From Pyrinomonadaceae bacterium (GTDB lineage: Bacteria; Acidobacteriota; Blastocatellia; Pyrinomonadales; Pyrinomonadaceae), in assembly GCA_036388995.1 (NCBI GenBank), contig DASVQU010000001.1, positions 81 to 64,080 on the forward strand: a stretch of 64,000 bases of DNA, written 5' to 3'. Shown here piece after piece: positions 21,524 to 43,477 of this stretch; the stretch's first letter is position 1, and every line of letters starts with the position of its first letter. The translations under genes and the position numbers were made by a program. The notes beneath the pieces are model-generated. The model made no database searches. It saw nothing but the letters and a program-made list of their open reading frames with translations, and had not been told where the DNA came from.

Positions 21524-21548
21524 TTTCAGCCTCTCTCGGACATTTTCA

Positions 21549-21649: not shown

Positions 21650-21659
21650 TTAATTTCTC

Positions 21660-23321: not shown

Positions 23322-23333
23322 GTTTTTTACCAG

Positions 23334-23501: not shown

Positions 23502-23551
23502 TTTCTTTTTACTTAAAACTCAAACTTTGTTTGAGAACATTCTTCAAACTT

Positions 23552-25858: not shown

Positions 25859-26034
25859 TTTCGGGCTAACTCTTAAGGATAAAAATTAAAAACTCGTAAA
25901 TTTATTTTTTACAGCCGATGAGAAAATTTGTCGGCATTAAGGGAAAATAGCGAATCATCGAAACATCCCAAAAATCAAGTGCTTGGGAGATGCACGAAAG
26001 AGTTTTGATTTTGCGGCATTGTAGCACGGATTTG

Positions 26035-27648
26035 TTAATTTGGCACGAATTCTGCGAGGTTTGCGGCTGCGCCCGCAGCCAAATTTTTGGCGGTTTCCAA
26101 AGCATCTTGTTCCGATTTGTCAATCGAAACGACGACGCGAATCATTGCGCCGTCCGAACGACGCCGGGAAATGCTGTCTAAAACTGTGAAAAACTTGTCT
26201 TTATATTCATTTGCGACAAATCGCCCGCGTCCTTGATACCAGTAAATCATCAAGGCTTTCGACTGGTGATTTTCAATCACGTAATTGTTGGCGACGAATT
26301 TTTGTCCGTCGGGCAAGCTGATTTCGACAGGCAGACTTTCATTCATCGTCCAACCCGAACCGGGCAAGCAGTTGCGCGGGCTATGATAAGTCGCGCCCGT
26401 ACGCTGAGTTTCATAATAACCGATGTAAAGATTCGCGCCTTTGCCTGAAGCCGGAACAAAATAATCGCGCATCAAATAATCGTCCGAGCCGAGAACCGTT
26501 TCGATTTCCGTTTCAAAACGTTGATCTGCGCCGTTTTGCCGCCAGTCGCCGATTTTCGCCGGAAAATCTTTCAAAAGTTTTCTGTCGGGACGAATTTCAC
26601 CTGTCGCTTCCCGCCACTGAATCAGCGAGCCGCCCGCAAGCAAAACCAGCAGCAAAAGCGAGAATTGGAAAGAAGAGGAGAAGAGGAGAAGAGGAGAAGA
26701 GGAACGGAAATCCGGCTTGCTTATCTCTCCCGTTCGCTCGTTCTCCTTTTTTCCCTTTCTCCAGTTTAAATCCAGGATTTTTCCGACGAGCAACAGCAGC
26801 AGCAAAGCCGCGACATAAACCAGCCAGCCGGAAGCGCCGTGCAAAAAGCCCTGCGCGGTTTCGCCGCCGTAGTAATAAGCCAGAATTCCGGTCGCTGCGA
26901 CGCGGACGCCGTTGGTCAAAACCGCAATCGGCAACGCGGCAAGCATTAAAATTGCCGCGCGCCACAAATCAAAACCTTTGAAAGAGGCGAAATTCCTCCG
27001 TCTGCTCGTAAAATAAGCATAAACGAGCGCGAGCGTGACGAGCGTCATCAAAGAGCGAATCCCGCTGCACGCCTCGACGACTTCGAGCCAGATTGATTGC
27101 GATGCGCCGCGCGGCAGCAGTTCGATCACGTTGCCGAATTTCGCCGCCGGAATTCCAAAAAGCCGAATTCCCCAAACCGCCAAATCCGTCGCAAGGAGCT
27201 GAAGCGGAAACGCGATTTTGTTAAATAGAATCGTCGGAATCGGAATCGCCAGCGCGAGCAAAACAAACGGCACGACGAGCTTTTTCAAAATTTCCCAACC
27301 GAAAAAATAAATCGTAATTCCGGCGAGCATCAGCAGGAGCGAAAATCTCTGAGTAAAAAGCTCCGCGCCCAAAATTCCGACGAGCAGAAAAAACATCGCC
27401 GCCAAACAAATCGCGCCGCCCGCGAGAAACGCCGGACGTTTTTCCATTTTTTCCAATTCGTCTTTTTCAAACCAGACGAGAAAACCGATCAAAAACGGAA
27501 TCAAAAGCCCGTGCGAATAGTTTTCGTCCATCCACCAGGTTTGCAGCAACAGCTTTAATGCGGGCGCGTACAAAAACAGCAACGCGGCGGCAAGCAGCAA
27601 AGGCTGCCAAAATCTGGCGAAACTGTTTTTAACCCACGTATTTTGCAT
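26035..27648 (-). CDS. exosortase fused to an EpsI-family domain
   Basis: The N-terminus LLQTWWMDENYSHGLLIPF and a polytopic region (...CSGIRSL...) match the exosortase pattern. The C-terminal about 200 aa match EpsI (GATYHSPRNCLPGSGW, MIYWYQGRGRF). Confidence 0.85.
   Translation of the reverse strand: MQNTWVKNSFARFWQPLLLAAALLFLYAPALKLLLQTWWMDENYSHGLLIPFLIGFLVWFEKDELEKMEKRPAFLAGGAICLAAMFFLLVGILGAELFTQRFSLLLMLAGITIYFFGWEILKKLVVPFVLLALAIPIPTILFNKIAFPLQLLATDLAVWGIRLFGIPAAKFGNVIELLPRGASQSIWLEVVEACSGIRSLMTLVTLALVYAYFTSRRRNFASFKGFDLWRAAILMLAALPIAVLTNGVRVAATGILAYYYGGETAQGFLHGASGWLVYVAALLLLLLVGKILDLNWRKGKKENERTGEISKPDFRSSSPLLLFSSSFQFSLLLLVLLAGGSLIQWREATGEIRPDRKLLKDFPAKIGDWRQNGADQRFETEIETVLGSDDYLMRDYFVPASGKGANLYIGYYETQRTGATYHSPRNCLPGSGWTMNESLPVEISLPDGQKFVANNYVIENHQSKALMIYWYQGRGRFVANEYKDKFFTVLDSISRRRSDGAMIRVVVSIDKSEQDALETAKNLAAGAAANLAEFVPN
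26671..26762. repeat. intragenic, degenerate tandem-repeat-armed hairpin in the exosortase-EpsI linker
   Basis: (AGAAGAGG)x4 at 26671..26702 faces a decayed pyrimidine-rich partner, CCGTTCGCTCGTTCTCCTTTTTTCCCTTTCTCC, at 26729..26762. Encodes KGKKENERTGEISKPDFRSSSPLLLFSSSF. Confidence 0.6.
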
Positions 27649-27770
27649 TGAGCGAGAACTTTTTGGAGTGCGAAAAACTTTAGCAGAAAAGAGCGGACAA
27701 ATCGAGGTGCGAACGGGCGCGAAAACGCCTTCAATAAATAAATTAGCTTATCGCCGACGGTTTCGACAAC

Positions 27771-28661
27771 TTATTTTTTTCTTTCCAAAATAAAATCGGC
27801 AATTTCACGCAAAAGCTCGGTCGGTTTTTGGATTTCGGAAAGCGCGGAAACGCAGTTTCGATGAGTTTCGGCGGCGAGATTTTGCGCCTGCTCCAAACCG
27901 TACAGCGCCGGGTAAGTCGCTTTTTCCGAACGCGCGTCTTTGCCCGGCGTTTTGCCCAAATCCGCCGCCGTTCCGCTCACGTCAAGCAAATCGTCAACAA
28001 TTTGAAACAGCAAGCCGAGCTGTGCCGCGTAAATTGAAACTGCGTCAAGCTCTTTTTCGCTCGCTTCGGCGATAATCGCACCGGCGCGTGCCGAGGCGAC
28101 AATCATCGCGCCGGTCTTCCGTTCGTGAATTCGTTTTAAATCTTCGCCGGAAATATGTTTGCCTTCCGCCGCCAAATCGAAAACCTGACCGGCGACCATT
28201 CCCGCCGGAGTTCCGGCGGCGCGGGCGATTTCGGAAATCATTTTTACGCGCGCTTTCGGCGTTAAATTTTCGTCTTCGGCAATTGTCTGAAAAGCCAGAG
28301 TTTGCAGAGCGTCACCCGCCAAAATCGCGGTTGCTTCGTCAAATTTGACGTGACAAGTCGGCTGCCCGCGCCGAATCGAATCGTCGTCCATTGCCGGAAG
28401 ATCGTCGTGAACGAGCGAATAAGTGTGAATCATTTCGAGAGCCGCCGCAGTTGCCAGCAATTTTTCGGTTGAGGCACCGAAACAATTTCCGACGGCAATC
28501 GTTAACGCCGGACGAAAACGCTTGCCGCCCGCAAACAAGCTCCAGCGAATCGCCGCGTGAAGATTTTTCGGCTCGATTTCGGATTTTGGAACAAGCTCGT
28601 CAAGTTTTTGATTAACAAGCTCACTCGTTTCGGCGAGAAAAATTTTGAGATTCACTTGCAC
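27771..28661 (-). CDS. ispA: (2E,6E)-farnesyl diphosphate synthase / polyprenyl synthetase
   Basis: First and second Asp-rich motifs: LVHDDLPAMDDD and FQIVDDLLD. Confidence 0.85.
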   Translation of the reverse strand: MQVNLKIFLAETSELVNQKLDELVPKSEIEPKNLHAAIRWSLFAGGKRFRPALTIAVGNCFGASTEKLLATAAALEMIHTYSLVHDDLPAMDDDSIRRGQPTCHVKFDEATAILAGDALQTLAFQTIAEDENLTPKARVKMISEIARAAGTPAGMVAGQVFDLAAEGKHISGEDLKRIHERKTGAMIVASARAGAIIAEASEKELDAVSIYAAQLGLLFQIVDDLLDVSGTAADLGKTPGKDARSEKATYPALYGLEQAQNLAAETHRNCVSALSEIQKPTELLREIADFILERKK

Positions 28662-28664
28662 AAC

Positions 28665-28970
28665 CTAAAAAGCGGATTCTTCTTCGTCTTTGTCGAAAAC
28701 AATTCGGCGTTTGACCGTCCGCGCGGGCTTTTCATCCGGCTCGTCGTCTTTTGCGTTGAGAGTTTCCAAAACGGGTTTACCGTCGTCGTCGCGCATTAAA
28801 ATTTCGATTCTGCGTTCGGCTTTGTTTAAGCGCTCCTGACATTCACGCGCGAGTCGGACGCCGTCCTCAAAAAGCTGCAAACTTTCTTCGAGCGGCAATT
28901 CGCCGCGCTCCAATTCGCGGACGATTCGCTCCAAAGCGGCGAGCTGTGTTTCAAAATTCGGTTCGTTCAT
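28665..28970 (-). CDS. xseB: exodeoxyribonuclease VII small subunit
   Basis: FETQLAALERIVRELERGELPLEESLQLFEDGVRLARECQERL is the XseB signature, followed by an acidic C-terminal extension. Confidence 0.85.
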   Translation of the reverse strand: MNEPNFETQLAALERIVRELERGELPLEESLQLFEDGVRLARECQERLNKAERRIEILMRDDDGKPVLETLNAKDDEPDEKPARTVKRRIVFDKDEEESAF

Positions 28971-28978
28971 TATTACTA

Positions 28979-29767
28979 CTATTGCGTGAGCTGTTCGAGC
29001 TGCCGGCGCAAATCTTCAATCGTCTGACGATTCGGCAGACGCGACGCTCCCGGTTTTTTGGCAAGCTCCCGCTGAACAATTTGCCCGACTTCCTGTGCGA
29101 TGCGGTCGGCGAGCGGTTCGTCTTTTACGCCGACGACTTTCCATTTATCGCCGTTTTTCTGCATCGTTAATTCAAGCGGGCGGTTTTGATAATTGCTTTT
29201 CACAATCGCCGTCTCGCCCGTTTGCGAGACTTCAGCAACGCGGTTGAGCGCAACGGTTGTCGCCCACGCCGAAACTTGCGGCAAGCTGGCAGTTTTATTT
29301 TTAATTTGAAGCGGGATTTCCCTCCGCGCCTGTTCTTTGATTGTCGGCAAAACCGGCGTCAGATACTGCCCGATCAACTGTTCGGCGCGTTTGACGGTTT
29401 CGGGCGGAAAACCGCGCGCATAGCGTTCTTTGGCTTTGGCTTCGATTTGCGGAACGAAACTATCAACAACCGCGTTTGAGTCGAGAAACTGGTCAATCTT
29501 CGGCTGATCGTCTTTGCGCGCCGCTTCAATCAGGAGCGCCAGCGAATAAGTTGGTGATTTTTGCAGATTCGACCACCACCAATAACCGCCGATTGCCCCA
29601 ATGACTAAAACAACCGCAAGCAAACCGCCCAAAATCAGCAAAATCTTGCCGCATCCGCCGCGTTTGGCATTAGATGCTCGGCTTTGATTTAAAGGCACGG
29701 ATGCGGGCGCGCCCGGCTGTTGCGAAGGCTCTTCGAGATTGACGACAATGCGGCGATTTTCCGACAT
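28979..29767 (-). CDS. membrane-anchored hypothetical protein
   Basis: 262-aa ORF with one N-proximal TM (ILLILGGLLAVVLVIGAIGGYWWW). Lies between xseB and xseA. Confidence 0.6.
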   Translation of the reverse strand: MSENRRIVVNLEEPSQQPGAPASVPLNQSRASNAKRGGCGKILLILGGLLAVVLVIGAIGGYWWWSNLQKSPTYSLALLIEAARKDDQPKIDQFLDSNAVVDSFVPQIEAKAKERYARGFPPETVKRAEQLIGQYLTPVLPTIKEQARREIPLQIKNKTASLPQVSAWATTVALNRVAEVSQTGETAIVKSNYQNRPLELTMQKNGDKWKVVGVKDEPLADRIAQEVGQIVQRELAKKPGASRLPNRQTIEDLRRQLEQLTQ

Positions 29768-29814
29768 AAAAACAAAATTAAATCACAGATTAACACGCCG
29801 CTTGCTTGGCGTTT

Positions 29815-29849
29815 AATCTCAAATTTGAAATTTCAAATAAAAAATCAAA
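29815..29849. repeat. period-7 A/T-rich array (AATCTCA AATTTGA AATTTCA AATAAAA AATCAAA) containing palindrome TTTGAAATTTCAAA
   Basis: Five heptamers. The xseA stop codon (29845..29847) lies inside the array. Confidence 0.6.
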
Positions 29850-31254
29850 TCTCCGTCGTTTCATTTTCAATAACACGACATTTCAAATTGCCGCGCGCAA
29901 GTTTTAAATTAAAATTTTCTTCCGTTTCGATTTGCGCCGCGTCGCGCAAAATCTCGCCGGTTTCTTTTTGCGCGAGGGCAAAACCGCGCCCTAAAACTGC
30001 AAGCGGCGAAAGCGCGTCGAGCGTTGACGCGGCAAGCCGAAATTTCTCGCTCGAATCAGACATTTTTAATTGAATTGCGGCATTGAGCTGCTGGTGCAAA
30101 GCGCGCAAATTCGATTCGGCACGGACGGCATTTGTTTTCAAAATCGCGGGCGTTAATTTCGCATTTAAAAAATCGAAACGCCGCTGATTTTGTCTGGTTT
30201 TATCAAGGAACAGCGTTTTAAGATGCAGCAAATTCGTTTCGACCATTTGCCTTTTTTCCCGAAACCGAGCCGGAATTTCGGCGAAAATCTGCGCGGCGCG
30301 CAGTTCTTGAAGACGAGATTTTGATTCTAAAATTTTATATTCCATCGCCTGCCGCAAATCTTCCTGCCGTTCAATTAAGAACGCAGCGATTTGCGATTCC
30401 TGCGCGGCGACGATTTCGGCTGCGGCGGAAGGCGTCGGAGCGCGAAAATCGGCGACAAAATCGGCGATTGTAAAATCAACTTCGTGTCCGACGGCGGAAA
30501 TCACCGGAATCAACGAATTGCGAATCGCCCGCGCCACGCGCTCGTCGTTAAACGCCCACAAATCTTCGGTCGAACCGCCGCCGCGCCCGACAATCAAAAC
30601 ATCAATCATCCGCTCGCGGTCGTTTGCCTGCAAAGCGCGAAAATGCTGCTCGTTGGCAAGCTCAATCGCGTCACGAATCTCCTGCGGCGCAGATTCGCCC
30701 TGCACGCGAGTCGGAATCAAAACAATGTCAACCGTTCGAGTGCGGCGCGCGAGAACGTGCAAAATATCGTGAATCGCAGCGCCCTGCGGCGAAGTGACGA
30801 CGCCGATGCGACGCGGAAAAAACGGAAGCTGCCGTTTTAATTCTTCCGCAAATAAACCTTCGCGTTCGAGCTTTTGTTTTAATTGCTCAAAAGCGATTTT
30901 CATCGCGCCTTCGCCGACCGGCTCAAGCGATTCGACCAGAATTTGATATTCGCCTTTCGGCTGGTAAACCGTCAGCTTGCCGGAAACTCTGACCTGCAAA
31001 CCGTCAAACGGCTGAAACCTGATTCGCAAATTCGAGCCACGATAACAAGCCGCCCGCAACTGCGAAAACTCGTCGGAAAGCGTGAAATACCAATGCCCGG
31101 AATTTGCCGCCGCGAAATTGGAAATCTCGCCTTCGACCCAGACGGATTTAAACGAACGCTCGATTACGCTCGAAACTTTCGCCGTCAATTCTGAAACCGA
31201 CAGCGGCTTGCGTTCTTCTTCGTCAAACAGAGATTGCAGCAGCGGACTTTTCAT
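29845..31254 (-). CDS. xseA: exodeoxyribonuclease VII large subunit
   Basis: N-terminal OB fold (LSVSELTAKVSSVIERSFKSVWVEGEISNF), a catalytic region (IGVVTSPQGAAIHDI, VGRGGGSTEDLWAFNDE) and a coiled-coil tail. Confidence 0.9.
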   Translation of the reverse strand: MKSPLLQSLFDEEERKPLSVSELTAKVSSVIERSFKSVWVEGEISNFAAANSGHWYFTLSDEFSQLRAACYRGSNLRIRFQPFDGLQVRVSGKLTVYQPKGEYQILVESLEPVGEGAMKIAFEQLKQKLEREGLFAEELKRQLPFFPRRIGVVTSPQGAAIHDILHVLARRTRTVDIVLIPTRVQGESAPQEIRDAIELANEQHFRALQANDRERMIDVLIVGRGGGSTEDLWAFNDERVARAIRNSLIPVISAVGHEVDFTIADFVADFRAPTPSAAAEIVAAQESQIAAFLIERQEDLRQAMEYKILESKSRLQELRAAQIFAEIPARFREKRQMVETNLLHLKTLFLDKTRQNQRRFDFLNAKLTPAILKTNAVRAESNLRALHQQLNAAIQLKMSDSSEKFRLAASTLDALSPLAVLGRGFALAQKETGEILRDAAQIETEENFNLKLARGNLKCRVIENETTEI

Positions 31255-32105
31255 TCGTGAATAGTAAATCGTAAATCGGGAATCGAGAAAAGCGGAACGT
31301 TTGATTTAAAATCAAAATTTGAGATTAAAAGCTCGCTGCCAAGCTGTTTCGAGTTTTCGGTAACGTTTCGCATTCCATACATCAAATTCCAGGAAACAAT
31401 ATTGGCAAAAGAAAAAAGCTCGCGGACAAACGGCGAATCGTCGTAAGTCAAAAGCCAGCGATGCGAGCATTTTTTCAAATTGGCGGCAAAACGCTCGTGC
31501 TCAAAATTTTTGTGCAATTTGCCGTTTTTGCCATACAAAGCCGAACTCATCGCGCTGAAATACGGCGGATCGAGAAACAAAAACACATCTTCGCCGGGCG
31601 CACTGAGGAGTTCTTCGTAATCAAAATTTGTGATTTTAACATCGCGCAAAACTTCCGGCATTTTTATCAATCGTTCAATGCTCGAATCGGTAAAGCGCAA
31701 ACGGAAGGCTTGTTCGGAAAAACCTCCCGCTTCGGTCGTGCCGGAAAACGTGATTCGATTAAAAACAAAAAATGCGGCGGCAGTTTCGAGCGAATTAAAA
31801 TTTTCTATGTTTGCTCGCAGGAAGCGGTGAAGCTCTTTGCCGTTGGCAAATTCACGTTGCCATTGCCAAATTAACTTGATTAAATTTTCCGAATTGTTTT
31901 GCAATTCGCTCCAAAAAGCTATGAGTTCGGAATATTTGTCGTTTATCCAAAATTTACTGTCGGGATGTTTTTGTCTTAGATGAATAAAAACCGAGCCGCC
32001 GCCGACAAAAGGTTCACGAAATTCCGAAAATGGCGGCAGCAAAGCAGAAATTTTTTCAACCGCGCGACTTTTACCGCCCGGATAACGTAAAGGGCTGCGA
32101 ATCAT
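31251..32105 (-). CDS. Dam-family (D12 class) N6-adenine DNA methyltransferase
   Basis: Motifs PLRYPGGKSR, FREPFVGGGSVF and FLFLDPPY. Its stop overlaps the xseA start (ATGA). Its ATG overlaps the upstream stop (TGATG). Confidence 0.85.
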   Translation of the reverse strand: MIRSPLRYPGGKSRAVEKISALLPPFSEFREPFVGGGSVFIHLRQKHPDSKFWINDKYSELIAFWSELQNNSENLIKLIWQWQREFANGKELHRFLRANIENFNSLETAAAFFVFNRITFSGTTEAGGFSEQAFRLRFTDSSIERLIKMPEVLRDVKITNFDYEELLSAPGEDVFLFLDPPYFSAMSSALYGKNGKLHKNFEHERFAANLKKCSHRWLLTYDDSPFVRELFSFANIVSWNLMYGMRNVTENSKQLGSELLISNFDFKSNVPLFSIPDLRFTIHE

Positions 32106-33199
32106 CAATTCCCTATTCTAACGACAAAATTGTTTTGCCGCGCTTCGGCAAAAAGATTTTGAGTCAATAAAATTTGTCTGGCGTTGAAATTATTCATTTG
32201 GAAAAAGCTGTTTTGTTCTTTCTGCTCATTTTCCGAAGTAATTGAACTAACAAGCGTATTTCCTGTTAATTGTAAAACAGAGCGATGAATATGCCGAACA
32301 TTATCAACCGCAACGTTTTCCAAATTGCTGTAAAGCATCATTTTGACAAGACCGTCTTTAATATCGCTCAAGCTAGGCAAATTCGACGAATTGCTGTGTT
32401 TACTTTCAATCAACTCGGCAATTCCATTTTCAATCTTGATTTCATCAACCGTAAAATAATATTTGCCGCCGAGAAAATTTGTAATTGTAATTTTGGCTTT
32501 TGTCGCAGTCGCTAACAGTTCTTTTGGCTGCAAAGTCGCAAATTCACGCCGCTGCGCTCCAAGCGCTTTTTCGCGCGAGCTTTTTTGAAATGCTTCCAAA
32601 CTTTCTTCAACAACGGCTGCAAATTTTCTTAATCCTTCCGCGCTATGAAGCAGGATTCCGGTTTTCAGCGAAATTTGTTCATAAGCGATTTGAGTTTTCT
32701 TCAAAATCTGCGGCAAATTCGCTAATTCTTTCAGATTCCAATGCAGCGCTGAACTAAAATAATTGCTGATTTCGCTGATTTTATTAATGACGTGAGAATT
32801 ATCAAGTTTTTGATTAGTGATTTTGCCGGCAAGTTTCGGGTGCTTATTCGCGTCCCGCACAAAAGTCAGAATTACATAAACATCAAGCAAGCTCATCAAC
32901 GCGATTGTGTCCCATTGAACAAAATCACGGTCGCCTTTGAGTCCTTCGTCAATTACAACCGGAATTATCGTGAGGCGTTTCGAGGTAGAAAGCGTGTTAT
33001 AGACTCTTTCATAGGGATAAGACCGCGTGCGTTTTGGCGTACGCCATTTGCTGATTGCAAACGAATTCTGAATATTTGTAACGAGACACGAAGCCGGAAT
33101 TTGATTAACGTCAAAATCGCTGAAAGAAATCTGTTTTAGTTGTTTTTGCAAAAGCGGTTGATAGGAAATTCCCTTGACGATTTCGGCGCTAATCTCCAT
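32105..33199 (-). CDS. putative PD-(D/E)XK restriction-endonuclease-like protein (short paralog)
   Basis: Position immediately upstream of, and coupled to, the methyltransferase. Candidate catalytic arrangement is FTVDE...ELIESKH. No family name recognised. Confidence 0.55.
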   Translation of the reverse strand: MEISAEIVKGISYQPLLQKQLKQISFSDFDVNQIPASCLVTNIQNSFAISKWRTPKRTRSYPYERVYNTLSTSKRLTIIPVVIDEGLKGDRDFVQWDTIALMSLLDVYVILTFVRDANKHPKLAGKITNQKLDNSHVINKISEISNYFSSALHWNLKELANLPQILKKTQIAYEQISLKTGILLHSAEGLRKFAAVVEESLEAFQKSSREKALGAQRREFATLQPKELLATATKAKITITNFLGGKYYFTVDEIKIENGIAELIESKHSNSSNLPSLSDIKDGLVKMMLYSNLENVAVDNVRHIHRSVLQLTGNTLVSSITSENEQKEQNSFFQMNNFNARQILLTQNLFAEARQNNFVVRIGN

Positions 33200-33201
33200 C
33201 T

Positions 33202-36159
33202 TTATTTTGTTGTGGCTTGTTCCAGTTTAATCAGAAAATTGTTTGCCTGCGCTTCGGCGAAAAGTTTTTTCAAGAGTTCGCCTTGTTTAAAATCAAAACG
33301 ATTTGTTTCGATGAATTTGGCAAGTTCTTCGGGTTTGGCTTCCGACGTAATTGCGCCTTGCATTTCGTTGGCAGTCAGACGCAGAACCGGAACGAATTTG
33401 ACCGATTTGCTGCCGCGACGGACATCAATCAGATTGCGGTACAAAATCATTTTTATCAGCCCGTCTTTGATGTCGCTCGTGTGCGTCAATTTTCCGCGCT
33501 GGGTGTGTTTTGATTCGATTAAATACAAGATTCCGTTTTCGTAAACCGCTTCGTCAACCGTCAGAAAATATTTGCCGCCGAGATAATCCGCGATTGTGAT
33601 GCGGCTTTTGGTTTGTGTCGGCATCGTTTCTTTGGGCTGGTCGGTTAGGAGTTCGCGCCGTTGTGCCTGCTGGGATTTTTGGCGGGAAAATTCTAAAAAC
33701 TGCACGATGTCGCCCGTTAATTTGCGCTCGAAATTTTCAACTCCCGCCGCGTCGTGCATTTTAACGCCGGTTGTTTCGGAGATTTTTTGATAAGCGGTTT
33801 TCGCCAGTTCGAGCGTTTGTTTTAAATTTTTCAGCTCGCGCAGATTCCACTCGAAAGCCGAAAGATTTGTCCGGCTCAGTTCTTTTAATTTCGTCTGGAT
33901 AAATTCGTTGTTAAATTGCTGCCCGATTAAACTGTCGGCGCGTCGAGGGCTTTTTTCCGCCCGGTCGTAATAACCCAAAACCGCGTAAACTTCCAGAAGA
34001 TTTAAAAGCGAAAAAGTGTCCCAGGCTAAAAAATCGCGCTCGCCCGATTGTCCTTCGTCTTTTAAGACCGGAATCACGGCGGCGCGTTTTTGATGTGCGA
34101 GAGTGTTGTAGAGGCGTTCGTAAGGATAAGAGCGTGTGCGTTTTGGGGAAACCCAGCGGCTGACGGCTACTTTTTTATCGCCGTCGGTTAAAACAAACGC
34201 TGGCGGAGCGCGATTTACATCGAGAGTGTCAAGCGGAAACTCGCGCAAATCTTCGGTTGCCGAAGGCTTATATTTTATTTGTTTGATTTCGCCCGTAATA
34301 TTTGAATCCTGCAAGCGGGCGGGCGCAAAAGAAGTTTTTTGAAAAACGGCGGGCGCGGTTTCTTGCGTTTCGATTTCTATTTTGCGACTTTGAAGGCGCG
34401 GCGGGACGGAAACGCTCGTTCCGAGCCGAACAAAAGCGTTTTCGCGTTTGACGGTTACGCGCGGCGCGGCTTTGGATTTTGACTGATAGGTCAAAGTGTA
34501 AGCCGTGCGAAGCTGCGCGACGACATCTTCGTAAACTTTTTGCAATTCTTCGATTTGGCGAATCGGGAAATAAACCCCGCCAGAAACTTCGGCGAGTCTT
34601 TTGGCTTCTTCTTCGGCTTTTGTCGTCAGAGTTAAATAACGATTTCTGAGCGGATCAATAGTCTGAGTTGATTCTTGAACGTTTGCCGCCGGAATCAAGC
34701 CCGAAGGCACGTAAAGCGGATAAATGAGCGCACCGGATTCTTCGATTGCGCCGAGCAGCGATTCAAACGGAATAAACGAGCGCGTATCGTCGCCGTCGGA
34801 AAGAATCACAATCGCCGTTCGCTCGCCGCGCAGGGGTTTTAAAGTTTCGACTAAGGTAAAAGCGAGCGAGTCGTAAAGCGCCGTGCCGCCGCCCGCGTCG
34901 AAAGTGTCGAGCGACTCGGAAAGCGCGCGCTTATTGCCGGAAAAATTCGATAAAACCTGCACGTCGTCGCGGAAAGTGATGATTGCGAGACTGTCTTGCG
35001 GGCTGACGGTGTTGATAAAATTGCGCGCGGCTTTGCGGATAAAATCAATGCGCTCTTCGACGCTCCCCGAAACGTCGAGCAGCAGGACAAGATTAAAAGG
35101 CGTTGCGGTTGATTGAAAATCGAGAATTTCTCGTTCAGCGCCGGCTTCAAAAATAGCGAAATCCTGTTTTGATAAACCGTTGACGGCGCGCCCGTTTTTG
35201 TCTGTGACGCTGACGTTTAATCGTCGCGCTGAATCCGAAGCGTTGGCGGGAGCACCCGGCGAATTAGGGCGTTTGACGATTGTCGGCTCGCTGCGAAACG
35301 GCGGCAGGGTTTTCGCATAATCGCCGAATCTTCGCGGGCTGACTTTGCGAATCGCATCGGTCAAAACCCGGTCGCCGCTTTGAATGATTGTTTTCGCGGC
35401 TCTCGTCAATTCTCGGTCGCGCAAATCCGAAGGCACTTCCGAAGGCGGGACGTTTAACAAAATCACTCCGCGCGCAGTTGTAAAATTCAACGAGATTAAG
35501 CGGTCTTCGGTCTTCGGTTTTCTGTCTTCGCTTTTTTTCTTTTTTTCTTTTTTGTCCGGTGTCGGTTGTGCCTCGTCGGTTGGTTCTTCTGTTTCATCGG
35601 ATTCTTCCGACTTTGGACTTTTTTTATCGGGTTCGTTTAATTCGCCTTTGACAGAGAATTTGCCGCCTGCTTTTTCTTTGACTTCGGCAAGTGTCAAATC
35701 GCTCAACAAAAGCGGGCGTCTTTCCGTCCAGAGAAAGTTGTATTTGATTGCTTCGGTCGGCACTTCAGCGTAAATTGTACCGGTTTCGGTTGTGACATCT
35801 GCCGATTCGAGATTTCCTCCCACTTCAACCGCGCCGTCTTTGCCAACGATTTTCAGCCGCGTCCGTTCCGGCACGCGCACAGTCAAATCAATGCGTCGCG
35901 CCGTTTCGCCGACTGTTATTGAAAGCACGCCTCGTTCGCTTTTTACAGTGACATCGGTTTCCGAAACCGGAGAATTCGGCGAATCGGCGGTCAAAAGAAT
36001 TTTGTCGCCCGTTTCTTCGGCGACGACGCGAATTGTTCCGCGCGTGTTCGTAATCGCAAGCTGCGGTCGAGCGCCGGTCGGAATCTCGTGCGAAATGCCC
36101 TGCGCGGCGGCGAAAGAGCAAAATAAAACGGTGAGAAATAATACTACTGCAAATCTCAT
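33202..36159 (-). CDS. 985-aa fusion: signal peptide + DUF4097-like beta region + K/E-rich spacer + acidobacterial-type VWA domain + C-terminal paralog of the 32105..33199 nuclease-like protein
   Basis: Signal peptide MRFAVVLFLTVLFCSFAAAQG. VWA/MIDAS motifs LLLDVSGS...GGGTALYDS...ILSDGDD, preceded by LNVSVTDKNGRAVNGLSKQDFAIFE (TIGR03436-like). Residues about 625-985 (nt about 33202..34287) align by eye with the whole 364-aa neighbour. Confidence 0.7.
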   Translation of the reverse strand: MRFAVVLFLTVLFCSFAAAQGISHEIPTGARPQLAITNTRGTIRVVAEETGDKILLTADSPNSPVSETDVTVKSERGVLSITVGETARRIDLTVRVPERTRLKIVGKDGAVEVGGNLESADVTTETGTIYAEVPTEAIKYNFLWTERRPLLLSDLTLAEVKEKAGGKFSVKGELNEPDKKSPKSEESDETEEPTDEAQPTPDKKEKKKKSEDRKPKTEDRLISLNFTTARGVILLNVPPSEVPSDLRDRELTRAAKTIIQSGDRVLTDAIRKVSPRRFGDYAKTLPPFRSEPTIVKRPNSPGAPANASDSARRLNVSVTDKNGRAVNGLSKQDFAIFEAGAEREILDFQSTATPFNLVLLLDVSGSVEERIDFIRKAARNFINTVSPQDSLAIITFRDDVQVLSNFSGNKRALSESLDTFDAGGGTALYDSLAFTLVETLKPLRGERTAIVILSDGDDTRSFIPFESLLGAIEESGALIYPLYVPSGLIPAANVQESTQTIDPLRNRYLTLTTKAEEEAKRLAEVSGGVYFPIRQIEELQKVYEDVVAQLRTAYTLTYQSKSKAAPRVTVKRENAFVRLGTSVSVPPRLQSRKIEIETQETAPAVFQKTSFAPARLQDSNITGEIKQIKYKPSATEDLREFPLDTLDVNRAPPAFVLTDGDKKVAVSRWVSPKRTRSYPYERLYNTLAHQKRAAVIPVLKDEGQSGERDFLAWDTFSLLNLLEVYAVLGYYDRAEKSPRRADSLIGQQFNNEFIQTKLKELSRTNLSAFEWNLRELKNLKQTLELAKTAYQKISETTGVKMHDAAGVENFERKLTGDIVQFLEFSRQKSQQAQRRELLTDQPKETMPTQTKSRITIADYLGGKYFLTVDEAVYENGILYLIESKHTQRGKLTHTSDIKDGLIKMILYRNLIDVRRGSKSVKFVPVLRLTANEMQGAITSEAKPEELAKFIETNRFDFKQGELLKKLFAEAQANNFLIKLEQATTK

Positions 36160-36166
36160 TATTTTC

Positions 36167-36265
36167 GAGTCCGGCGAGTCCGGCGAGTCTGGCGAGTCTG
36201 GCGAGTCAATTTGAATTTGTTTCTTTTGACTCGCTAGACTCTCGACTCGCCAGACTCGCCGGACT
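36167..36265. repeat. tandem-repeat-armed hairpin, type B (GAGTCYGGC)n, copy 2
   Basis: GAGTCCGGCGAGTCCGGCGAGTCTGGCGAGTCTGGCGAGTC - loop - GACTCGCTAGACTCTCGACTCGCCAGACTCGCCGGACT - TTTTT. The right arm encodes the last residues (SGESGESRV) and the stop of the kinase gene. Confidence 0.9.
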
Positions 36266-38546
36266 TTTTCGTATTGCGGCTCGTATGGCGACCCGATTGC
36301 GCGAGCTTTTCGCGCAAACGAAGCTGCCAGCGTTTTTGCGTGCGGTCGTTTTCTTCAAATTCGGTGAGCAATTCGCCCAAGCCTTCGCCGCCCGCTTGTC
36401 TGGATTTTAAGTATAAAAGACCCGTGATGACCGATGTGAGCGAGCTGAGGAGAACCAGAATCGGAAACCACAAGATTTGAAAAATCGCTTCATAAACCGT
36501 TTCCTGGAAAGATTTTTTTAGCTTTTTGTCCTCTTCGGTTTCCGGCTGCGCGGCGGCTTGAGCGGTTTGGTTTTGCTCTTCAAAGTCGGTTCCTATTGAA
36601 ACTTTGCTCTCCTCGCGCAGACGAATATTAACGCCGCCGGGGGTTTTTTCAACAACGAAAATATCATTTGATTTCATCAGCGACGAAACGAAAAGCGCTA
36701 AAGCACCCGATAACAAGAGAGGCGCGAAAAACGACAGCGAAAATGCGGCAACCGTGGTGCTGAGCGAGCGCCGAACAAGCTGAGAAGAACGCCGCAATGC
36801 CTGGCGACCGCGCAGGTTTTCCATCGCTACAACCGGCGAGACGAGATAAAAAAGCACGAAAACCCCGACTCCCAGCGAAAAACCGAGAAGCATAACGGCA
36901 ATCGAAAAAAACGACAAAATGCCTGTCGCAGCAGCGCCCCAATTAACCGAGACGCTAATGCCGAGCAAAATCGCGCCCGGAATTATCCCGACCATTAGCG
37001 CTAAAAATGCAATTAATGTAGTGATGGTTACAGTTCCGGCAAAACCGCGCCATCTGGTTTTCGCCGCCGCCAGAGCCTTTTTCCAATTGACGGGACGCAG
37101 CGGAACGGCTAAAAGCTGGGCGACGATCCACGTCGTCACGCCGAGCAGAATTGACGCGAAAAAGATGCCGACAAAAATTGAGGCAAATCCCAAAATGGCT
37201 GAGAAAATGCCCGCCACCGTCGAGGAAATGACGTTTTCGAAACGCAAAAAACTGATGGTAATCCGCGAAAAAGTAATCAGAAAGCTCGGCAATTGAAGCA
37301 GCAGGGAAAGCCACAAAAACGTCGGTAAATGCTCGCTGTAAATCACGAGCGCGCGGCGCAGCAGCATACCGATGCCTTCGCTCGACGCGCGCAGCTTGCT
37401 CGAAAAATCAATTGCCGATGCCGGACGCTCGTCCGCCCGTTTAGCCAGCGCCGAATGAATCGTCTGTTTTACCCGGCGACGCAGTTTTTTTGTTTCGAGC
37501 GGCGGCGGTTCAGTTTCCTGATGCGCTTTGATAACTTCGGTAAAATTGCCGGTAAAAGGCGTCGAGCCGGAAAGCATTTGATATGCGATAACGCCTAAAG
37601 AGTAAACGTCGGCGCGCGGATCGAGCCGCTCGCCCCGACATTGTTCCGGCGACATGTAAAGCGGCGTTCCCAAAACCGCGCCGACTCGCGTTAAAGCCGA
37701 CGAGGAACTGCCGACAGTTCTATTTTCAGCGCCGTTTGGAACGGATAAAATCTGTGTCGCAACCGCTTCCTGATTTGTCGCCGCGCCGCCGTTATTTTCG
37801 GCAACGGTCGCCCGCGACGACTGAAAAATTGCCGTTGCGCCTTCATCCGGATTTTGGATTTTGGATTTTGGATTTTGAATTTCAAAATTTAAGGTTGCGC
37901 CTTCGTCAATTTCGGTTGTTAAATTTGCAGAAAGAGCGACGGTTGCGCTTTCCAAATCAACCGAGTGAGAAGAAAGACTTTGCGCTTTAAACTTTTTACT
38001 TTGTACTTCTTCTTCGTCTTCGCTCATCGGCTCTTCGAGCTTGGCGATGCCGAAATCGAGAACTTTGACGGTGTAGCCGCCGCGCGAGTTCGGTTCGAGC
38101 CAGATGTTGTCGGGTTTTAAATCGCGGTGAATAATGCCTTGCCGGTGCGCTTCGGCGACCGCCGAGCAGGTTTGCTCCAAAATATCGAGCGTCCACGACA
38201 GCGGCAGGCTTTTTTCTTCTTCCAGAACTTCGCCCAGAGTGCAGCCGTCAAGATATTCCATCACAAGATAAGCCACGCGCCCCAGTTCTGTCTCGGCTAA
38301 ACCGAAATCGGTCACGTCAACGACGTTCGGATGACGCAGACGACCGGCGGCGCGGGCTTCGCGGCGAAAACGCTCGACAAATTCTTCGCGGCGCATAAAT
38401 TCGGGCGCGATAACTTTCAGAGCGACGGCGCGCTCCGTCCCTTCGTGCAGGGCGAGATACACCGCGCCCATACCGCCGCGCCCTATTTCGCGTTCGATTC
38501 TGTATTTGCCGTCGAGCGTTTGTCCGATTAAATTTGCCGCGTTCAT
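36234..38546 (-). CDS. Ser/Thr protein kinase with C-terminal polytopic membrane domain
   Basis: Kinase motifs GRGGMGAVY, ALKVI, HRDLKPDNIW, DFGIAK and GTPLYMSPEQ. The C-terminal half has about 6 TM helices. Confidence 0.85.
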   Translation of the reverse strand: MNAANLIGQTLDGKYRIEREIGRGGMGAVYLALHEGTERAVALKVIAPEFMRREEFVERFRREARAAGRLRHPNVVDVTDFGLAETELGRVAYLVMEYLDGCTLGEVLEEEKSLPLSWTLDILEQTCSAVAEAHRQGIIHRDLKPDNIWLEPNSRGGYTVKVLDFGIAKLEEPMSEDEEEVQSKKFKAQSLSSHSVDLESATVALSANLTTEIDEGATLNFEIQNPKSKIQNPDEGATAIFQSSRATVAENNGGAATNQEAVATQILSVPNGAENRTVGSSSSALTRVGAVLGTPLYMSPEQCRGERLDPRADVYSLGVIAYQMLSGSTPFTGNFTEVIKAHQETEPPPLETKKLRRRVKQTIHSALAKRADERPASAIDFSSKLRASSEGIGMLLRRALVIYSEHLPTFLWLSLLLQLPSFLITFSRITISFLRFENVISSTVAGIFSAILGFASIFVGIFFASILLGVTTWIVAQLLAVPLRPVNWKKALAAAKTRWRGFAGTVTITTLIAFLALMVGIIPGAILLGISVSVNWGAAATGILSFFSIAVMLLGFSLGVGVFVLFYLVSPVVAMENLRGRQALRRSSQLVRRSLSTTVAAFSLSFFAPLLLSGALALFVSSLMKSNDIFVVEKTPGGVNIRLREESKVSIGTDFEEQNQTAQAAAQPETEEDKKLKKSFQETVYEAIFQILWFPILVLLSSLTSVITGLLYLKSRQAGGEGLGELLTEFEENDRTQKRWQLRLREKLAQSGRHTSRNTKKSGESGESRV
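37834..37907. repeat. in-frame 60-nt insertion in the kinase linker: period-7 array (ATTTTGG)n flanked by a 14-nt direct repeat
   Basis: GTTGCGCCTTCATC (37834..37847) and GTTGCGCCTTCGTC (37894..37907) flank ATTTTGGATTTTGGATTTTGGATTTTGAATTTCAAAATTT. The protein reads DEGAT-LNFEIQNPKSKIQNP-DEGAT. Confidence 0.8.
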
Positions 38547-38735
38547 TTGTTCAAATCGGTCGTTAATCTTTGGCTGGTCTTAAGGAACTTTAACCGAAAA
38601 TCGCATTTCGAGCCAAACCGCCAGCCGAAATTAACATCGTAAACCGAACGCCGAAACGCGAAAACGGTTTCGGTAAAATTTACAACGAGAGCTAAATTTG
38701 CTACTTTCAAAACTTTGGTACGGAGACGAATCCGA

Positions 38736-39971
38736 ATGAATCTGAAACTAACTCGCCTGCATTTGCTCGATAAATCGAACGATTTCGCGCGAGATTTCAA
38801 ATCCGGCGTTTCACTGCATTGTCATACGCAGCATTCGCGCGAAATGTTGGATTTTATTCCGCATTACGCCGCGCAAATTCCGATTGTCAAGAATTTTTGG
38901 GAGCGCGAGCGCAAAAATTACCTTGAGCGTAATGGAAGAGAAATTGATTTTTCAGTAGGTTACTGGACACCGCCGCTCGCCGCCGAGGAAGTTTTTAATC
39001 TCGAACGCGGGCAAATCAACCGAATCGGACTGGAAGCAATCATTTCTTTAACCGATCACGACGAAATTTCGGCAAACAAAATCGTTCGCGGCGAAGTCGG
39101 AAACGCCGAAAATGCGCCGATTTCGCTTGAATGGACGGTGCCGTTTGAAGGCGGCTTTTTCCACGTCGGCGTTCATAATCTGCCGGAACAACGAGCCGAC
39201 GCGATTACCAAAGATTTACTCGATTTTACGTTTGCCGAAAAACGCGGTTTGATTTACGGCGAAAACCGTTTGGATGAACTATTCGGGCTTTTAAATGAAA
39301 TTCCCGAAGTTTTGGTGATTTTGAATCATCCGCTCTGGGACATCGAATTGTTCGGTAAAGAGCGACACCGAGTTTTGCTCAACGATTTTATTCAAAAACA
39401 CGGGCGGTGGATTCACGCTTTTGAGATCAACGGTTTCCGCAAATGGTCGGAAAACAAAGCCGTTCTGGAAATGGCTGATCAGTTAGGTTATCCGGTTGTG
39501 TCGGGCGGCGACCGACACGGCTGCCAGTGCAATTCGGTGGTTAATCTGACGACTGTTAAAACTTTCGGCGAATTCGCCGAGCAGATTCGGTTTGACAAAC
39601 GCAGCGAAGTTATTTTGATGCCGCATTATCGTCAGCCGCTCAATTGGAGACAGCTTCAGTCATTTGCGGAAATTTTGCAAAATTATCCAGAATTTGGCGC
39701 CGAGCGCAAGCATTGGCAGAACCGCGTGTATGCGAAAATTGACGAGCGCGGCACTAAACCTTTGTCGTTTTTCTGGGATCGCGGCGGACCGCGCTGGTTA
39801 AAAATGGCAACCTGGACGCTCGCGGCATTCGGCAGCCGCGCTTCGCGCCCGGCATTCGGTTTGATGGTAAAACGTAAAGACCGCTTGCCGAAATCATTCA
39901 ACGCTCCGGCTTTGGCGACAACGAGCGAAGAAGAACAGATATTGTCGGATTTATCGTCCGACGCGGTTTGA
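38736..39971 (+). CDS. PHP-domain-like metal-dependent phosphoesterase
   Basis: ATG at 38736; the track start 38715 is TTG. His/Asp motifs LHCHTQHS, LTDHD, LNHP and SGGDRHG fit the PHP superfamily pattern. Confidence 0.55.
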   Translation: MNLKLTRLHLLDKSNDFARDFKSGVSLHCHTQHSREMLDFIPHYAAQIPIVKNFWERERKNYLERNGREIDFSVGYWTPPLAAEEVFNLERGQINRIGLEAIISLTDHDEISANKIVRGEVGNAENAPISLEWTVPFEGGFFHVGVHNLPEQRADAITKDLLDFTFAEKRGLIYGENRLDELFGLLNEIPEVLVILNHPLWDIELFGKERHRVLLNDFIQKHGRWIHAFEINGFRKWSENKAVLEMADQLGYPVVSGGDRHGCQCNSVVNLTTVKTFGEFAEQIRFDKRSEVILMPHYRQPLNWRQLQSFAEILQNYPEFGAERKHWQNRVYAKIDERGTKPLSFFWDRGGPRWLKMATWTLAAFGSRASRPAFGLMVKRKDRLPKSFNAPALATTSEEEQILSDLSSDAV

Positions 39972-39978
39972 ATTTTTA

Positions 39979-40043
39979 CCACAGAGACACAGAGACACAG
40001 AGAGAAAAAACAATAAAAACTCTGTGTCTCTGTGTCTCTGTGG
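39979..40043. repeat. tandem-repeat-armed hairpin, type A, copy 3
   Basis: CCACAGAGACACAGAGACACAGAG - AGAAAAAACAATAAAAA - CTCTGTGTCTCTGTGTCTCTGTGG. Confidence 0.9.
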
Positions 40044-40061
40044 TTAATTTTTAAGGATAAT

Positions 40062-41270
40062 TTGCGAGTAGCGTTTTTTACAGATTCATATTTGGAAGTC
40101 AACGGCGTGGCGCTGACGAGCAAGCGGCTTGAAAATTTTGCTTTACGTCGCGGCTATCCTTTTCTGACGATTCACGCCGGAGCGAAAACGCAGATTACCA
40201 AAGAAGGCTCCGTCACGAGACAGGAATTAAAACGCAGCCCGCTGGCAATTCCGATGGACGCCGGGTTAAAATATGATCCACTGTTCGAGAGGCATCACGC
40301 GCGCGCCAAAAAACTCGTCGCCGAATTCAAACCCGACGTAATTCACATCACGGGCTTAAACGATGTCAGCATTTTAGGCGTTTATATCGCTTATAAAGCG
40401 TTTGACTACGAAATTCCGGTCATCGCTTCGTGGCACACGAATCTTCACGAATTTGCCGCCACCCGTTTGCGTCAAACCTTCCGGTTTGTGCCGAAAAAGC
40501 TGAGCGACCCGCTCATAAGTTTAGCCGAGCGCAAAATTTTCGACGGCGCGATGTTGTATTACAAAATGGGCAAAGTAATCTTAGCGCCGAATCAGGATTT
40601 GATTAACGCTTTGAAAAAAGGCACGCGGCGTTCGGCGCATTTGATGACGCGCGGAGTTGATACAGAGCTTTTCTCGCCGCAAAAACGGACAGTGAAAGAC
40701 GGAATTTTCCGGCTTGGTTTTGTCGGCAGACTTCAGCCCGAAAAAAACGTCCGGCTGCTGGTTGATTTGGAAAAAGAATTGATCAAAGCCGGAAAAACCG
40801 ATTACGAATTTTTGATTGTCGGCGACGGAAACCAGCGCGGCTGGCTTGAACAAAATTTTGAAAGAGCGAAATTTACCGGGTTTATAAAAGGCGAACAGCT
40901 CGCCGAGGCTTACGCAAATATGGACGCTTTCGTTTTTCCGTCGGAAACCGATGCTTTCGGAAACGTCGTGCAGGAAGCGTTTGCGTCGGGCGTTCCGGCG
41001 ATTGTCGCAAACGTCGGCGGACCGAAATACATCGTCCGGCACGGCGAAACGGGTTATGTCGCCGATAATTTAAATGATTACGCCCGCTTTGCTTTGCAGT
41101 TAATGAACAAACCGGAATTGCAGCGGGAAATGAGCCGCGCGGCGCGCGAATTTGCTCTGACGCGCTCGTGGGATTCGGTTTTTGAAAAGGTTTATCAGGC
41201 TTACGACGAGTGCCGGAATTATCGCCCGAAAACGGCGACTCCGAAAACTCGCGTCGCCTCTTTATCATGA
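40062..41270 (+). CDS. GT4-family glycosyltransferase (lipid-glycosyltransferase-like N-terminus)
   Basis: The track start 40032 is a GTG inside the repeat. TTG at 40062 gives (M)RVAFFTDSYLEVNGVA, the usual GT4 N-terminus. C-terminal motif FVFPSETDAFGNVVQEAFASGVPAIV. Confidence 0.75.
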   Translation: MRVAFFTDSYLEVNGVALTSKRLENFALRRGYPFLTIHAGAKTQITKEGSVTRQELKRSPLAIPMDAGLKYDPLFERHHARAKKLVAEFKPDVIHITGLNDVSILGVYIAYKAFDYEIPVIASWHTNLHEFAATRLRQTFRFVPKKLSDPLISLAERKIFDGAMLYYKMGKVILAPNQDLINALKKGTRRSAHLMTRGVDTELFSPQKRTVKDGIFRLGFVGRLQPEKNVRLLVDLEKELIKAGKTDYEFLIVGDGNQRGWLEQNFERAKFTGFIKGEQLAEAYANMDAFVFPSETDAFGNVVQEAFASGVPAIVANVGGPKYIVRHGETGYVADNLNDYARFALQLMNKPELQREMSRAAREFALTRSWDSVFEKVYQAYDECRNYRPKTATPKTRVASLS

Positions 41271-42082
41271 AAGAAATAACGTTCGATACAAACCCGCCTA
41301 TCGTGCAAACAAACACAATCAGCGAGGCATTTGCGAGCGTCGGACGCGATCCGGCGCAGCTTTTTCGTCAATGGAATTATAAAGGCGCAGTTCTGAGCGG
41401 AACGATGCGCGCTCCCATCTTTTTCATCACCTATTTAATCGGCAGAGAAAGCATCAAAATCGCGCTCGCCGCCGCCTTTGCGCAATTCGTTTTCCGCTTT
41501 TTCTTTGCGGGTTTGAGCAGCGCTTTGATTCAAAAATTCCGCCGCGTCGAACCGGCTTGGAAAGCTCTGCTCGCCGTAATGCTTTTGATTCCGGCAATCA
41601 GCCACATTTTTGAGTTTGCAGTGCAATACGGTTTTGCTCATTTTACTCAAACCGGCGACCACACCGACGAAGCAATTTTACGTTCAATCAGTATTTCTAT
41701 TATTTCGGCGCTGTTCGGTTTGTTTGCAATGCGGCGCGATGTGATGATAGTCGGCGAAGAAGAAAGCAAATCAATTTGGAGCGATTTGAGCAGGCTGCCG
41801 AGATTAATTTTTATTTTCGTCGGTTTTATCCCGATGGAAATCGCCAAAATGCTTCGGCGCGGGGCTTATTTGGCAGCCGCTTGCAGCGTTCTCGGTTTCG
41901 GCGTTTTCGCGCAGATTCTCGGCTGGGCTGTAATCAGCAAGCCTTTATGGACTTACAACAAAGGCAAATGGACGATTTTCTCGTTTTGGGGAATTGACGG
42001 AATGATTTTGCTTCTGCTGTGCCTAATTCCCGCCGCGCTTTATCTGAGAAGCACGACAAAATCATCCGAAGACGTTTCATAA
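41267..42082 (+). CDS. polytopic membrane protein (hypothetical)
   Basis: ATG at 41267 overlaps the upstream stop (ATGA). About 6 hydrophobic helices. No family recognised. Confidence 0.55.
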   Translation: MKEITFDTNPPIVQTNTISEAFASVGRDPAQLFRQWNYKGAVLSGTMRAPIFFITYLIGRESIKIALAAAFAQFVFRFFFAGLSSALIQKFRRVEPAWKALLAVMLLIPAISHIFEFAVQYGFAHFTQTGDHTDEAILRSISISIISALFGLFAMRRDVMIVGEEESKSIWSDLSRLPRLIFIFVGFIPMEIAKMLRRGAYLAAACSVLGFGVFAQILGWAVISKPLWTYNKGKWTIFSFWGIDGMILLLLCLIPAALYLRSTTKSSEDVS

Positions 42083-42085
42083 AAA

Positions 42086-43465: not shown

Positions 43466-43477
43466 AATTTAGAAGCA

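Follow-up and report, generated by a model that had tools for sequence, protein, structure and literature searches.

The window analyzed here, a 64-kb stretch of Pyrinomonadaceae DNA, carries on its minus strand three co-directional, closely spaced open reading frames (ORFs), as seen in its ORF listing. They encode a 985-amino-acid (aa) fusion of a VWA protein with a restriction endonuclease module, a 364-aa standalone restriction endonuclease (R) and a 284-aa methyltransferase (M), confirming the tightly packed trio of the original prediction (Table 1). R starts 2 nucleotides (nt) past the stop codon of the fusion gene, the ATG of M overlaps the stop codon of R as TGATG, and the 3' end of M overlaps the start of xseA; an alternative TTG start for M lies one codon earlier, at 32108, and gives a longest ORF of 285 aa. 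Across 31-34 kb the guanine-plus-cytosine (G+C) content dips to 0.40-0.45, with flanks of ~0.51. Our analysis indicates that the fusion, and not the trio, is the conserved unit, and that it resides in DNA from which the word GGCC has been almost entirely removed.

Table 1. Features of the locus and their positions in the window
Feature	Position	Strand	Basis
Fusion gene, 985 aa: predicted signal peptide, all-beta domain, K/E-rich linker, VWA domain, linker, restriction endonuclease module	33202..36159	−	
R, 364-aa type II restriction endonuclease, predicted GGCC-specific; D252, E265 and K267 catalytic	32105..33199	−	
M, 284-aa alpha-class (D12 fold) methyltransferase, M.CbeI/DmtB family, predicted product GGm4CC	31251..32105	−	
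Fusion codons 1-19, predicted Sec signal peptide (MRFAVVLFLTVLFCSFAAA before Q)	36103..36159	−	heuristic pattern
Fusion residues 22-174, all-beta N-terminal domain without family	35638..36096	−	AlphaFold, predicted local distance difference test (pLDDT) score ~90; no Pfam match at E <= 10
Fusion residues 178-215, disordered K/E-rich spacer	35515..35628	−	pLDDT < 50
Fusion residues 314-564, acidobacterial VWA domain (TIGR03436), complete metal-ion-dependent adhesion site (MIDAS)	34468..35220	−	profile match, invariant residues, Foldseek
Fusion residues 589-618, disordered, flexible 30-residue linker at fusion junction, where unfused orthologs end	34306..34395	−	pLDDT < 50
Fusion residues 620-985, intact type II restriction endonuclease module, paralog of R	33205..34302	−	BLASTP, PADLOC, pLDDT > 90
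Module catalytic residues D869, E882, K884	33553-33555, 33514-33516, 33508-33510	−	
Whole window without the tetranucleotide GGCC	1..64000		word counts against shuffles

The C-terminal module of the fusion is a paralog of R. Residues 621-979 align with residues 3-362 of R at 44% identity with a single gap (BLASTP, E = 7e-101), which bears out an alignment first made by eye, and the module matches the PADLOC REase_II model (1.8e-66). The nuclease motif that had been noticed in both copies, D869...E882-x-K884 in the fusion and D252...E265-x-K267 in R, shows conservation of 95% or more, up to full invariance, across 202 sequences. These comprise the 83 standalone R proteins and 119 fused modules of a joint alignment, in which 73 positions reach 95% conservation or more in each group; the two groups carry the same residue at all 73, and not one position is conserved but different. 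Within the 119 aligned fusions, D869, E870, E882, K884 and H885 are invariant. It is unlikely that the fused module is a catalytically dead DNA-binder, as every conserved residue of R has been kept. Furthermore, the ratio of nonsynonymous to synonymous substitution rates (dN/dS) of the module is 0.07-0.17, similar to that of the housekeeping gene xseA, also in pairs that lack an adjacent restriction-modification (R-M) cassette.

Ahead of the module, the VWA domain is of the acidobacterial type that had been proposed, scoring 131.7 bits against TIGR03436 (cut-off 81.25) and also matching Pfam VWA, and the five residues of its MIDAS (D362, S364, S366, T426 and D455) are invariant in 119 homologs. 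A Foldseek search with the full fusion returned the VWA domain alone, with VWA/integrin I domains at E ~1e-7. The AlphaFold model of the fusion (mean pLDDT 80.5) shows an N-terminal helix, the putative signal peptide, and a compact module with pLDDT above 90; the K/E-rich spacer noted earlier is disordered in it. The suggestion of a DUF4097-like beta region was not confirmed: Pfam gave nothing usable for the N-terminal 300 residues, and residues 21-180 have no match to DUF4097 (PF13349) even at E <= 10, although the model does show an all-beta domain there.

The N-terminus of 111 of the 119 homologs follows the heuristic pattern K/R, then 12-15 hydrophobic residues, then A-x-A before Q, in line with the signal peptide that had been read from the 985-aa protein. 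No later membrane-spanning segment was found in the fusion, whose top downstream hydrophobicity window is below usual membrane-segment values. The fusion protein is thus predicted to be exported by the Sec route. An internal translation start that would yield a cytoplasmic module was considered and rejected: the junction has neither a conserved Met nor another conserved start, any Met at all occurring there in just 9 of 119 homologs, and the position that corresponds to the first Met of R varies. Because a Met near the junction is both rare and unconserved, there is no conserved route to a separate cytoplasmic module.

More than 120 full-length homologs of the fusion (955-1085 aa, 47-100% identity) were found, and the named ones all belong to Pyrinomonadaceae or Acidobacteriota. 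A one-genome-per-species scan and a metagenome scan together gave 46 loci with a fused module (loci are numbered L, proteins P), all 46 of which share the order Ser/Thr kinase, VWA-endonuclease fusion, R and M where present, xseA, xseB. In a sister clade the VWA orthologs are unfused, end at ~585-600 aa and occupy the same place upstream of xseA. The fusion is kept under purifying selection across Pyrinomonadaceae. Seven fused modules (P0133, P0136, P0140, P0141, P0142, P0147 and P0157) are nearer to standalone R (53%) than to other fused modules (51%), and cluster with R in 90 of 100 neighbor-joining bootstraps; gene conversion or cassette exchange between fused and standalone copies is a possible cause.

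The same constancy does not extend to R and M; of the trio, only the fusion is conserved. R and M are both present in L009, L014, L027, L028, L035, the window and L026, where R is only partial; L004, L015, L022 and L031 have M without R. By automatic tally, 35 module-bearing loci have no full-length R or M, a count that includes L001 and L010, with M fragments, and several short contigs that end soon past the module. L001, which is 96% identical to the window, retains an M remnant only, the last 82 codons (204-285; 10183-10427), directly upstream of xseA. In L002 (96% identical) and L003 (85% identical) the R-M cassette is cleanly gone, leaving a gap of just 63-65 nt between the fusion and xseA. 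These observations show that R-M is dispensable at this locus and has been lost repeatedly while the fusion persisted: even in relatives 85-96% identical to the window, R and M may be present, decayed or absent.

Taken alone, R and M form an ordinary type II R-M pair that is already catalogued. They are separate adjoining genes for an endonuclease and a methyltransferase, as in orthodox type II systems, and match the PADLOC models REase_II PDLC03572 (2.8e-70) and MTase_II PDLC03247 (3.4e-104), respectively. The claim that the locus departs from the standard type II layout thus fails for this pair but stands for the intact second endonuclease behind a predicted signal peptide and a VWA domain. 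Systems matching these two models in Bacteroidales, KSB1 and Acidobacteriota share the order R then M and an R of ~365 aa; those of Bacteroidales and KSB1 differ in an M-R-M layout, with a beta-class methylase (PF01555) upstream of the standalone R and a D12-class one downstream (L162, 9058-11979; L164, 9135-11978), and the window cassette lacks that upstream methylase.

R has no match in Pfam or NCBIfam, and a PDB sequence search gave a chance match only. Its family contains 453 clusters at 50% identity. Among the best 150 representatives, almost all are standalone proteins of ~365 aa, and none of those outside Pyrinomonadaceae is fused to another protein. One R homolog at 57% identity, P0031 (516 aa), also carries a Pfam D12 methylase domain, either as an R-M fusion or through a merged gene call. 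The AlphaFold model of R is confident (pLDDT 91.7), and its weak Foldseek matches are mostly PD-(D/E)XK nucleases (McrC, DUF4297, Exo5, OkrAI and Cas4). The invariant D252, E265 and K267 sit on consecutive beta strands of this model, the fold match itself being weak.

M belongs to the D12 fold that had been assigned to it (Pfam MethyltransfD12, PF02086, 5.9e-36); its assignment as a Dam enzyme making N6-methyladenine was not upheld. It scores 102.3 bits against TIGR00571, below the cut-off of 114.85, and 34.8 against 441 for PRK10904, and Escherichia coli Dam structures match at E ~3e-4 only, versus 4e-83 for M.CbeI. By far its closest solved relative is PDB 7M6B, which is M.CbeI (E = 3.8e-83, 282 bits, residues 2-267), an N4-cytosine methylase of the alpha class that carries a DPPY motif (PMC8616854). 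M.CbeI and its homolog DmtB modify GGCC, giving GGm4CC, with N4-methylcytosine (PMC3425538). M shares with M.CbeI the DPPY motif in a D12-class fold and 48% identity by tblastn (~50% over 266 aa), and is very probably, judged by this homology, a GGCC N4-cytosine methylase; the window itself offers no GGCC for it to modify. In the CbeI/M.CbeI system of Caldicellulosiruptor bescii (cutting at GG/CC), as in the window, the endonuclease gene immediately precedes the methylase gene and the surroundings are poor in GGCC. However, R.CbeI is a 326-aa protein of the HaeIII family (PF09556), and CbeI has no exported paralog. We considered R as a homolog of R.CbeI and rejected this, since neither R nor the fused module matches PF09556 at E <= 0.1. 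Because R.CbeI is unrelated to R of the window, GGCC specificity is not inherited by homology, and we infer it for R and the fused module. GGCC is also depleted around standalone R with a D12-class M in Bacteroidales, Dysgonamonadaceae and KSB1 (observed to expected ratios of 0.12, 0.04 and 0.12), which suggests independent support for this specificity from three other lineages.

The absence of GGCC is extreme. The window has none, against 214 +/- 12.8 in dinucleotide-preserving shuffles and 263 expected from di- and trinucleotide counts, and the 46 module-bearing loci together have 6, against ~1,900 expected. The ratio is 0.003 in the 35 loci without a full-length adjacent R or M, from lineages that are 0.5-1.4 synonymous substitutions per site (dS) apart. 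In contrast, 86 loci of an outgroup with an unfused VWA gene have 4,517 versus 5,108 (ratio 0.88). The absence recurs in records of many independent studies, including ones titled as complete chromosomes, and hence is not a sequencing artefact. The module-bearing clade (as noted in L001-L036 and L082-L095) also avoids CATG, GATC, GTAC and many 6-bp palindromes, for which the sister clade is near normal, but GGCC is the sole word removed completely in every species of it. In the window itself, CATG (ratio 0.20) and GATC (0.35) are strongly avoided, the palindromes CAGCTG, CTGCAG, GAGCTC, GACGTC, CGATCG and GATATC are missing, and a single CTCGAG is present where 25 would be expected.

Neighbor-joining trees built from xseA and from the VWA part place lineages without the module inside or beside the module-bearing clade. 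GGCC has been regained in three independent ones: L073 (VWA part 76% identical to the nearest fused relative; ratio 0.59), L034 (59%; 0.49) and L096/98/99/101 (62-66%; 0.67-0.91). It is still scarce in L082/83/88 (84%; 0 versus 94 expected), L089 (80%; 1 versus 9) and the basal L104 (57%; 1 versus 13). Among module-bearing lineages there is no recovery, with L036 as the exception. Recovered lineages number 3 of 6 without the module and 0 of ~30 with it (p ~0.003, a hand calculation from a rough lineage count). Avoidance of GATC, GTAC and CCGCGG persists in L034 and L073, and neither retains a remnant of the module. The pattern fits loss of the module followed by slow re-accumulation of GGCC. 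A strict one-to-one link between the module and GGCC absence was rejected, as L082/83/88 and L104 are GGCC-poor without a module; for these, another GGCC nuclease elsewhere in the genome, or a lag after loss, must be invoked.

What might such a protein be for? The architecture, its conservation, the selection on it and the loss of GGCC are observed, whereas nuclease activity, export and a biological purpose are what we infer. The explanation we favor, at what we would call even chances, is an exported and active GGCC endonuclease whose producers are immune through the lack of target sites. Most likely, the fusion would have arisen in a single event, in which a tandem copy of R joined the upstream VWA gene upon loss of its stop codon. 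The fused module would be an active GGCC endonuclease that leaves the cytoplasm with the VWA protein for the periplasm, cell surface or matrix, where it would cut foreign DNA containing GGCC. According to PMC2790893, producers of secreted nucleases need self-protection. Here the producers would be immune because their own DNA lacks GGCC, and since essentially every site is gone from the DNA of the clade, the enzyme could often be kept without a neighboring methylase. Methylation by M might then be a second line of protection, inherited but no longer needed, against enzyme that folds ahead of its export. The arrangement that had been imagined at the outset, one cytoplasmic copy and one exported copy, is viable in these terms. 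The exported enzyme could serve in periplasmic restriction of incoming DNA, in selective degradation of foreign extracellular DNA, or in attack on competitors.

It would be tempting to go further and to see in Pyrinomonadaceae an extracytoplasmic, methylase-free form of restriction, in which self is defined by the total absence of GGCC. The VWA-tethered enzyme would destroy GGCC-containing DNA in the periplasm, in the surroundings or in competitors, while the cell's own released DNA would be spared for the matrix or for uptake. If this were true, GGCC absence would be a negative signal of DNA uptake and identity, written across the whole genome. This idea is tentative, and we consider it more doubtful than probable.

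Several observations weigh against an exported enzyme guarded by missing sites. An exported enzyme should leave the chromosome free of selection, except insofar as part of it folds prior to export or gets back into cells. The signal-peptide call on the fusion comes from the heuristic alone, and a Foldseek search of the R model against the PDB gave nothing significant (best E 0.18). As the clade avoids many palindromes, restriction pressure on it is general and does not come from the fusion alone. The GGCC counts cover 5-20 kb per genome; R or M genes may therefore lie elsewhere, and GGCC nucleases encoded there may contribute. L082/83/88 and L104 are GGCC-poor although the module is missing at this locus. 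L036 stands alone among module-bearing loci in having several GGCC (4 versus 62 expected in 15 kb, at 1593, 1949, 10541 and 10832, within genes for a zf-HC2 anti-sigma factor and an OmpA-family protein). Finally, in L165 (GCA_028284415.1; 6993-11098) the VWA gene stops at 8807 and the module lies in another frame, with homology from 8900 and a first candidate start, TTG, at 9005, followed by R, M and xseA (GGCC 0 versus 29 expected). Whether by a real frameshift or by an error in a metagenome-assembled genome, the module is parted there from the VWA protein.

The problem of chromosomal selection is eased if the fused enzyme acts mainly in the cytoplasm, either as a large unexported share or as a module released or translated separately, and is in effect a second, methylase-independent restriction enzyme for which the VWA part is irrelevant or regulatory. 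The purge of GGCC is most readily understood if the nuclease comes into contact with chromosomal DNA, GGCC recovers after the module is lost, and the module of L165 stands in a separate frame with a possible start of its own. Yet the signal-peptide pattern is nearly universal among the homologs, the junction offers few Met residues and no conserved counterpart of the R start, and the fusion has been maintained over deep divergence though one stop codon could separate its parts; we regard this explanation as quite improbable. Chromosomal selection despite export would also be accounted for by a weapon akin to bacteriocins or polymorphic toxins, in which the VWA and beta domains bind competitors, the nuclease is delivered, GGCC-free kin are immune, and exposure to the toxins of kin purges GGCC. 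Its C-terminal nuclease sits on a secreted-type multi-domain protein with disordered linkers, directly upstream of a standalone nuclease copy and a protective gene, like toxin cassettes with immunity genes (PMC3482391), and the grouping of seven fused modules with R is compatible with cassette exchange. Against this stand the lack of any Pfam match to a toxin or trafficking domain, a C-terminal module that is always of one family rather than polymorphic, a translocation machinery that was not identified, and the VWA-only orthologs of the sister clade, which imply that the N-terminal part has a function of its own. Such a weapon seems to us rather remote.

Site avoidance grows with the lifespan of an R-M system and outlasts its loss, the criterion for avoidance being a ratio < 0.78 (Rusinov et al. 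2015, PMC4687349). The purge might thus be the legacy of a long-lived orthodox GGCC R-M system, here or elsewhere in the genome, with an exported module that serves, for example, in scavenging or binding extracellular DNA and is tolerated since the sites are gone. The module-less but GGCC-poor L104 and L082/83/88, the many other palindromes avoided across the clade and the restriction of the scans to loci rather than whole genomes are all in keeping with such a legacy. It is harder to reconcile with the near-total absence of GGCC at widely diverged loci without full-length adjacent R or M, with the regain of GGCC only where the module was lost while other palindromes are still avoided there, and with the invariant catalytic residues, which argue against a role in binding only. 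On balance we hold a legacy to be unlikely. One could also take the fusion for an error of assembly or annotation, or for a dead R gene that is read through as it decays, given the different frames of L165 and a frameshift within the fused module of L031 (7018-8123), a locus that keeps a full M. This is refuted by the same uninterrupted ORF, which recurs at 46 loci and in over 120 protein clusters drawn from many independent studies, some of them records titled as complete chromosomes, by a dN/dS of ~0.1 and by the retention of all conserved residues; the chance that an artefact joined the VWA part to the module, a concern raised at the outset, is negligible.

Secreted nucleases with self-protection are exemplified by Anabaena NucA/NuiA, colicin DNases with their Im proteins, and barnase/barstar. 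Their likeness to the fusion lies in a nuclease with an export signal and a cytoplasmic safeguard in the producer, a concept set out in PMC2790893. These nucleases are, however, not sequence-specific and are neutralized by protein inhibitors, whereas in our case methylation, or the loss of every target site from the genome, would do the protecting. Polymorphic toxins with Tox-REase domains share the secreted multi-domain protein with a C-terminal nuclease and the standalone copy and protective gene downstream (PMC3482391). The fusion differs from them in having no recognized trafficking domain or Pfam Tox-REase match and an invariable C-terminal domain, and the protective gene of the window is a DNA methylase that is often absent from the locus. 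The defining features of such toxins are lacking here. The fusion is above the cut-off for the TIGR03436 acidobacterial VWA proteins, and its unfused orthologs likewise lie upstream of xseA, but all unfused orthologs sampled here are without a nuclease domain. The traces of lost R-M systems described by Rusinov et al. 2015 (PMC4687349) resemble our case in the under-representation of a palindromic type II target, also in relatives that lack the system; here, by contrast, the ratio over all sampled module-bearing loci is 0.000-0.003 against the usual < 0.78, and it tracks a methylase-independent, predicted exported copy of the enzyme. The literature that we searched yielded no paper on restriction enzymes that are exported or secreted, nor any on GGCC in Blastocatellia. 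R and M are of known kinds; a predicted exported VWA-endonuclease fusion without an adjacent methylase in GGCC-free DNA was not found in that literature.

In the usual picture, restriction enzymes are cytoplasmic and safe only beside a methylase. The locus points to three departures from it: a family-level group of bacteria keeps an intact restriction enzyme on a predicted exported adhesion-type protein over long evolution, the protective methylase at the locus is often discarded, and the target word has been removed throughout the sampled DNA. If confirmed, this would be a second means of telling own DNA from foreign DNA, through lack of the target and not through modification, and a concrete case of restriction outside the cytoplasm; it would also explain an extreme genome composition. 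In practical terms, transformation of these uncultured-type soil bacteria would need GGCC-free DNA, and GGCC absence could mark metagenome contigs of this clade.

Some further features of the window were noted. Positions 2000-5000 have low G+C (0.36-0.39) and small ORFs only, one with a zinc-ribbon domain. A search of 2-13 kb for an R-M island showed only a zinc-ribbon protein, a glycoside-hydrolase-like/FG-GAP protein, a PhoD-like phosphatase and an outer-membrane barrel protein. tRNA genes, sought to see how structural RNAs cope without GGCC, are absent from the 64 kb. A 537-aa protein encoded at 26035-27648 on the minus strand has an exosortase EpsH domain and an EpsI-like DUF3485; no link from it to the fusion was found, as the latter lacks a PEP-CTERM-like tail. 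In the stretch that separates the stop codon of the kinase from the ATG of the fusion (36166-36265), a 9-nt tandem repeat, GACTCGCCR, occurs in 4.7 copies, with inverted copies at 36228-36265. These repeats fold as a hairpin of −73.8 kcal/mol (z = −12.4) that ends ~13 nt before the start codon of the fusion and is followed by no U-run; the hairpin is weak in L003 and is kept in L035, L001 and L002.

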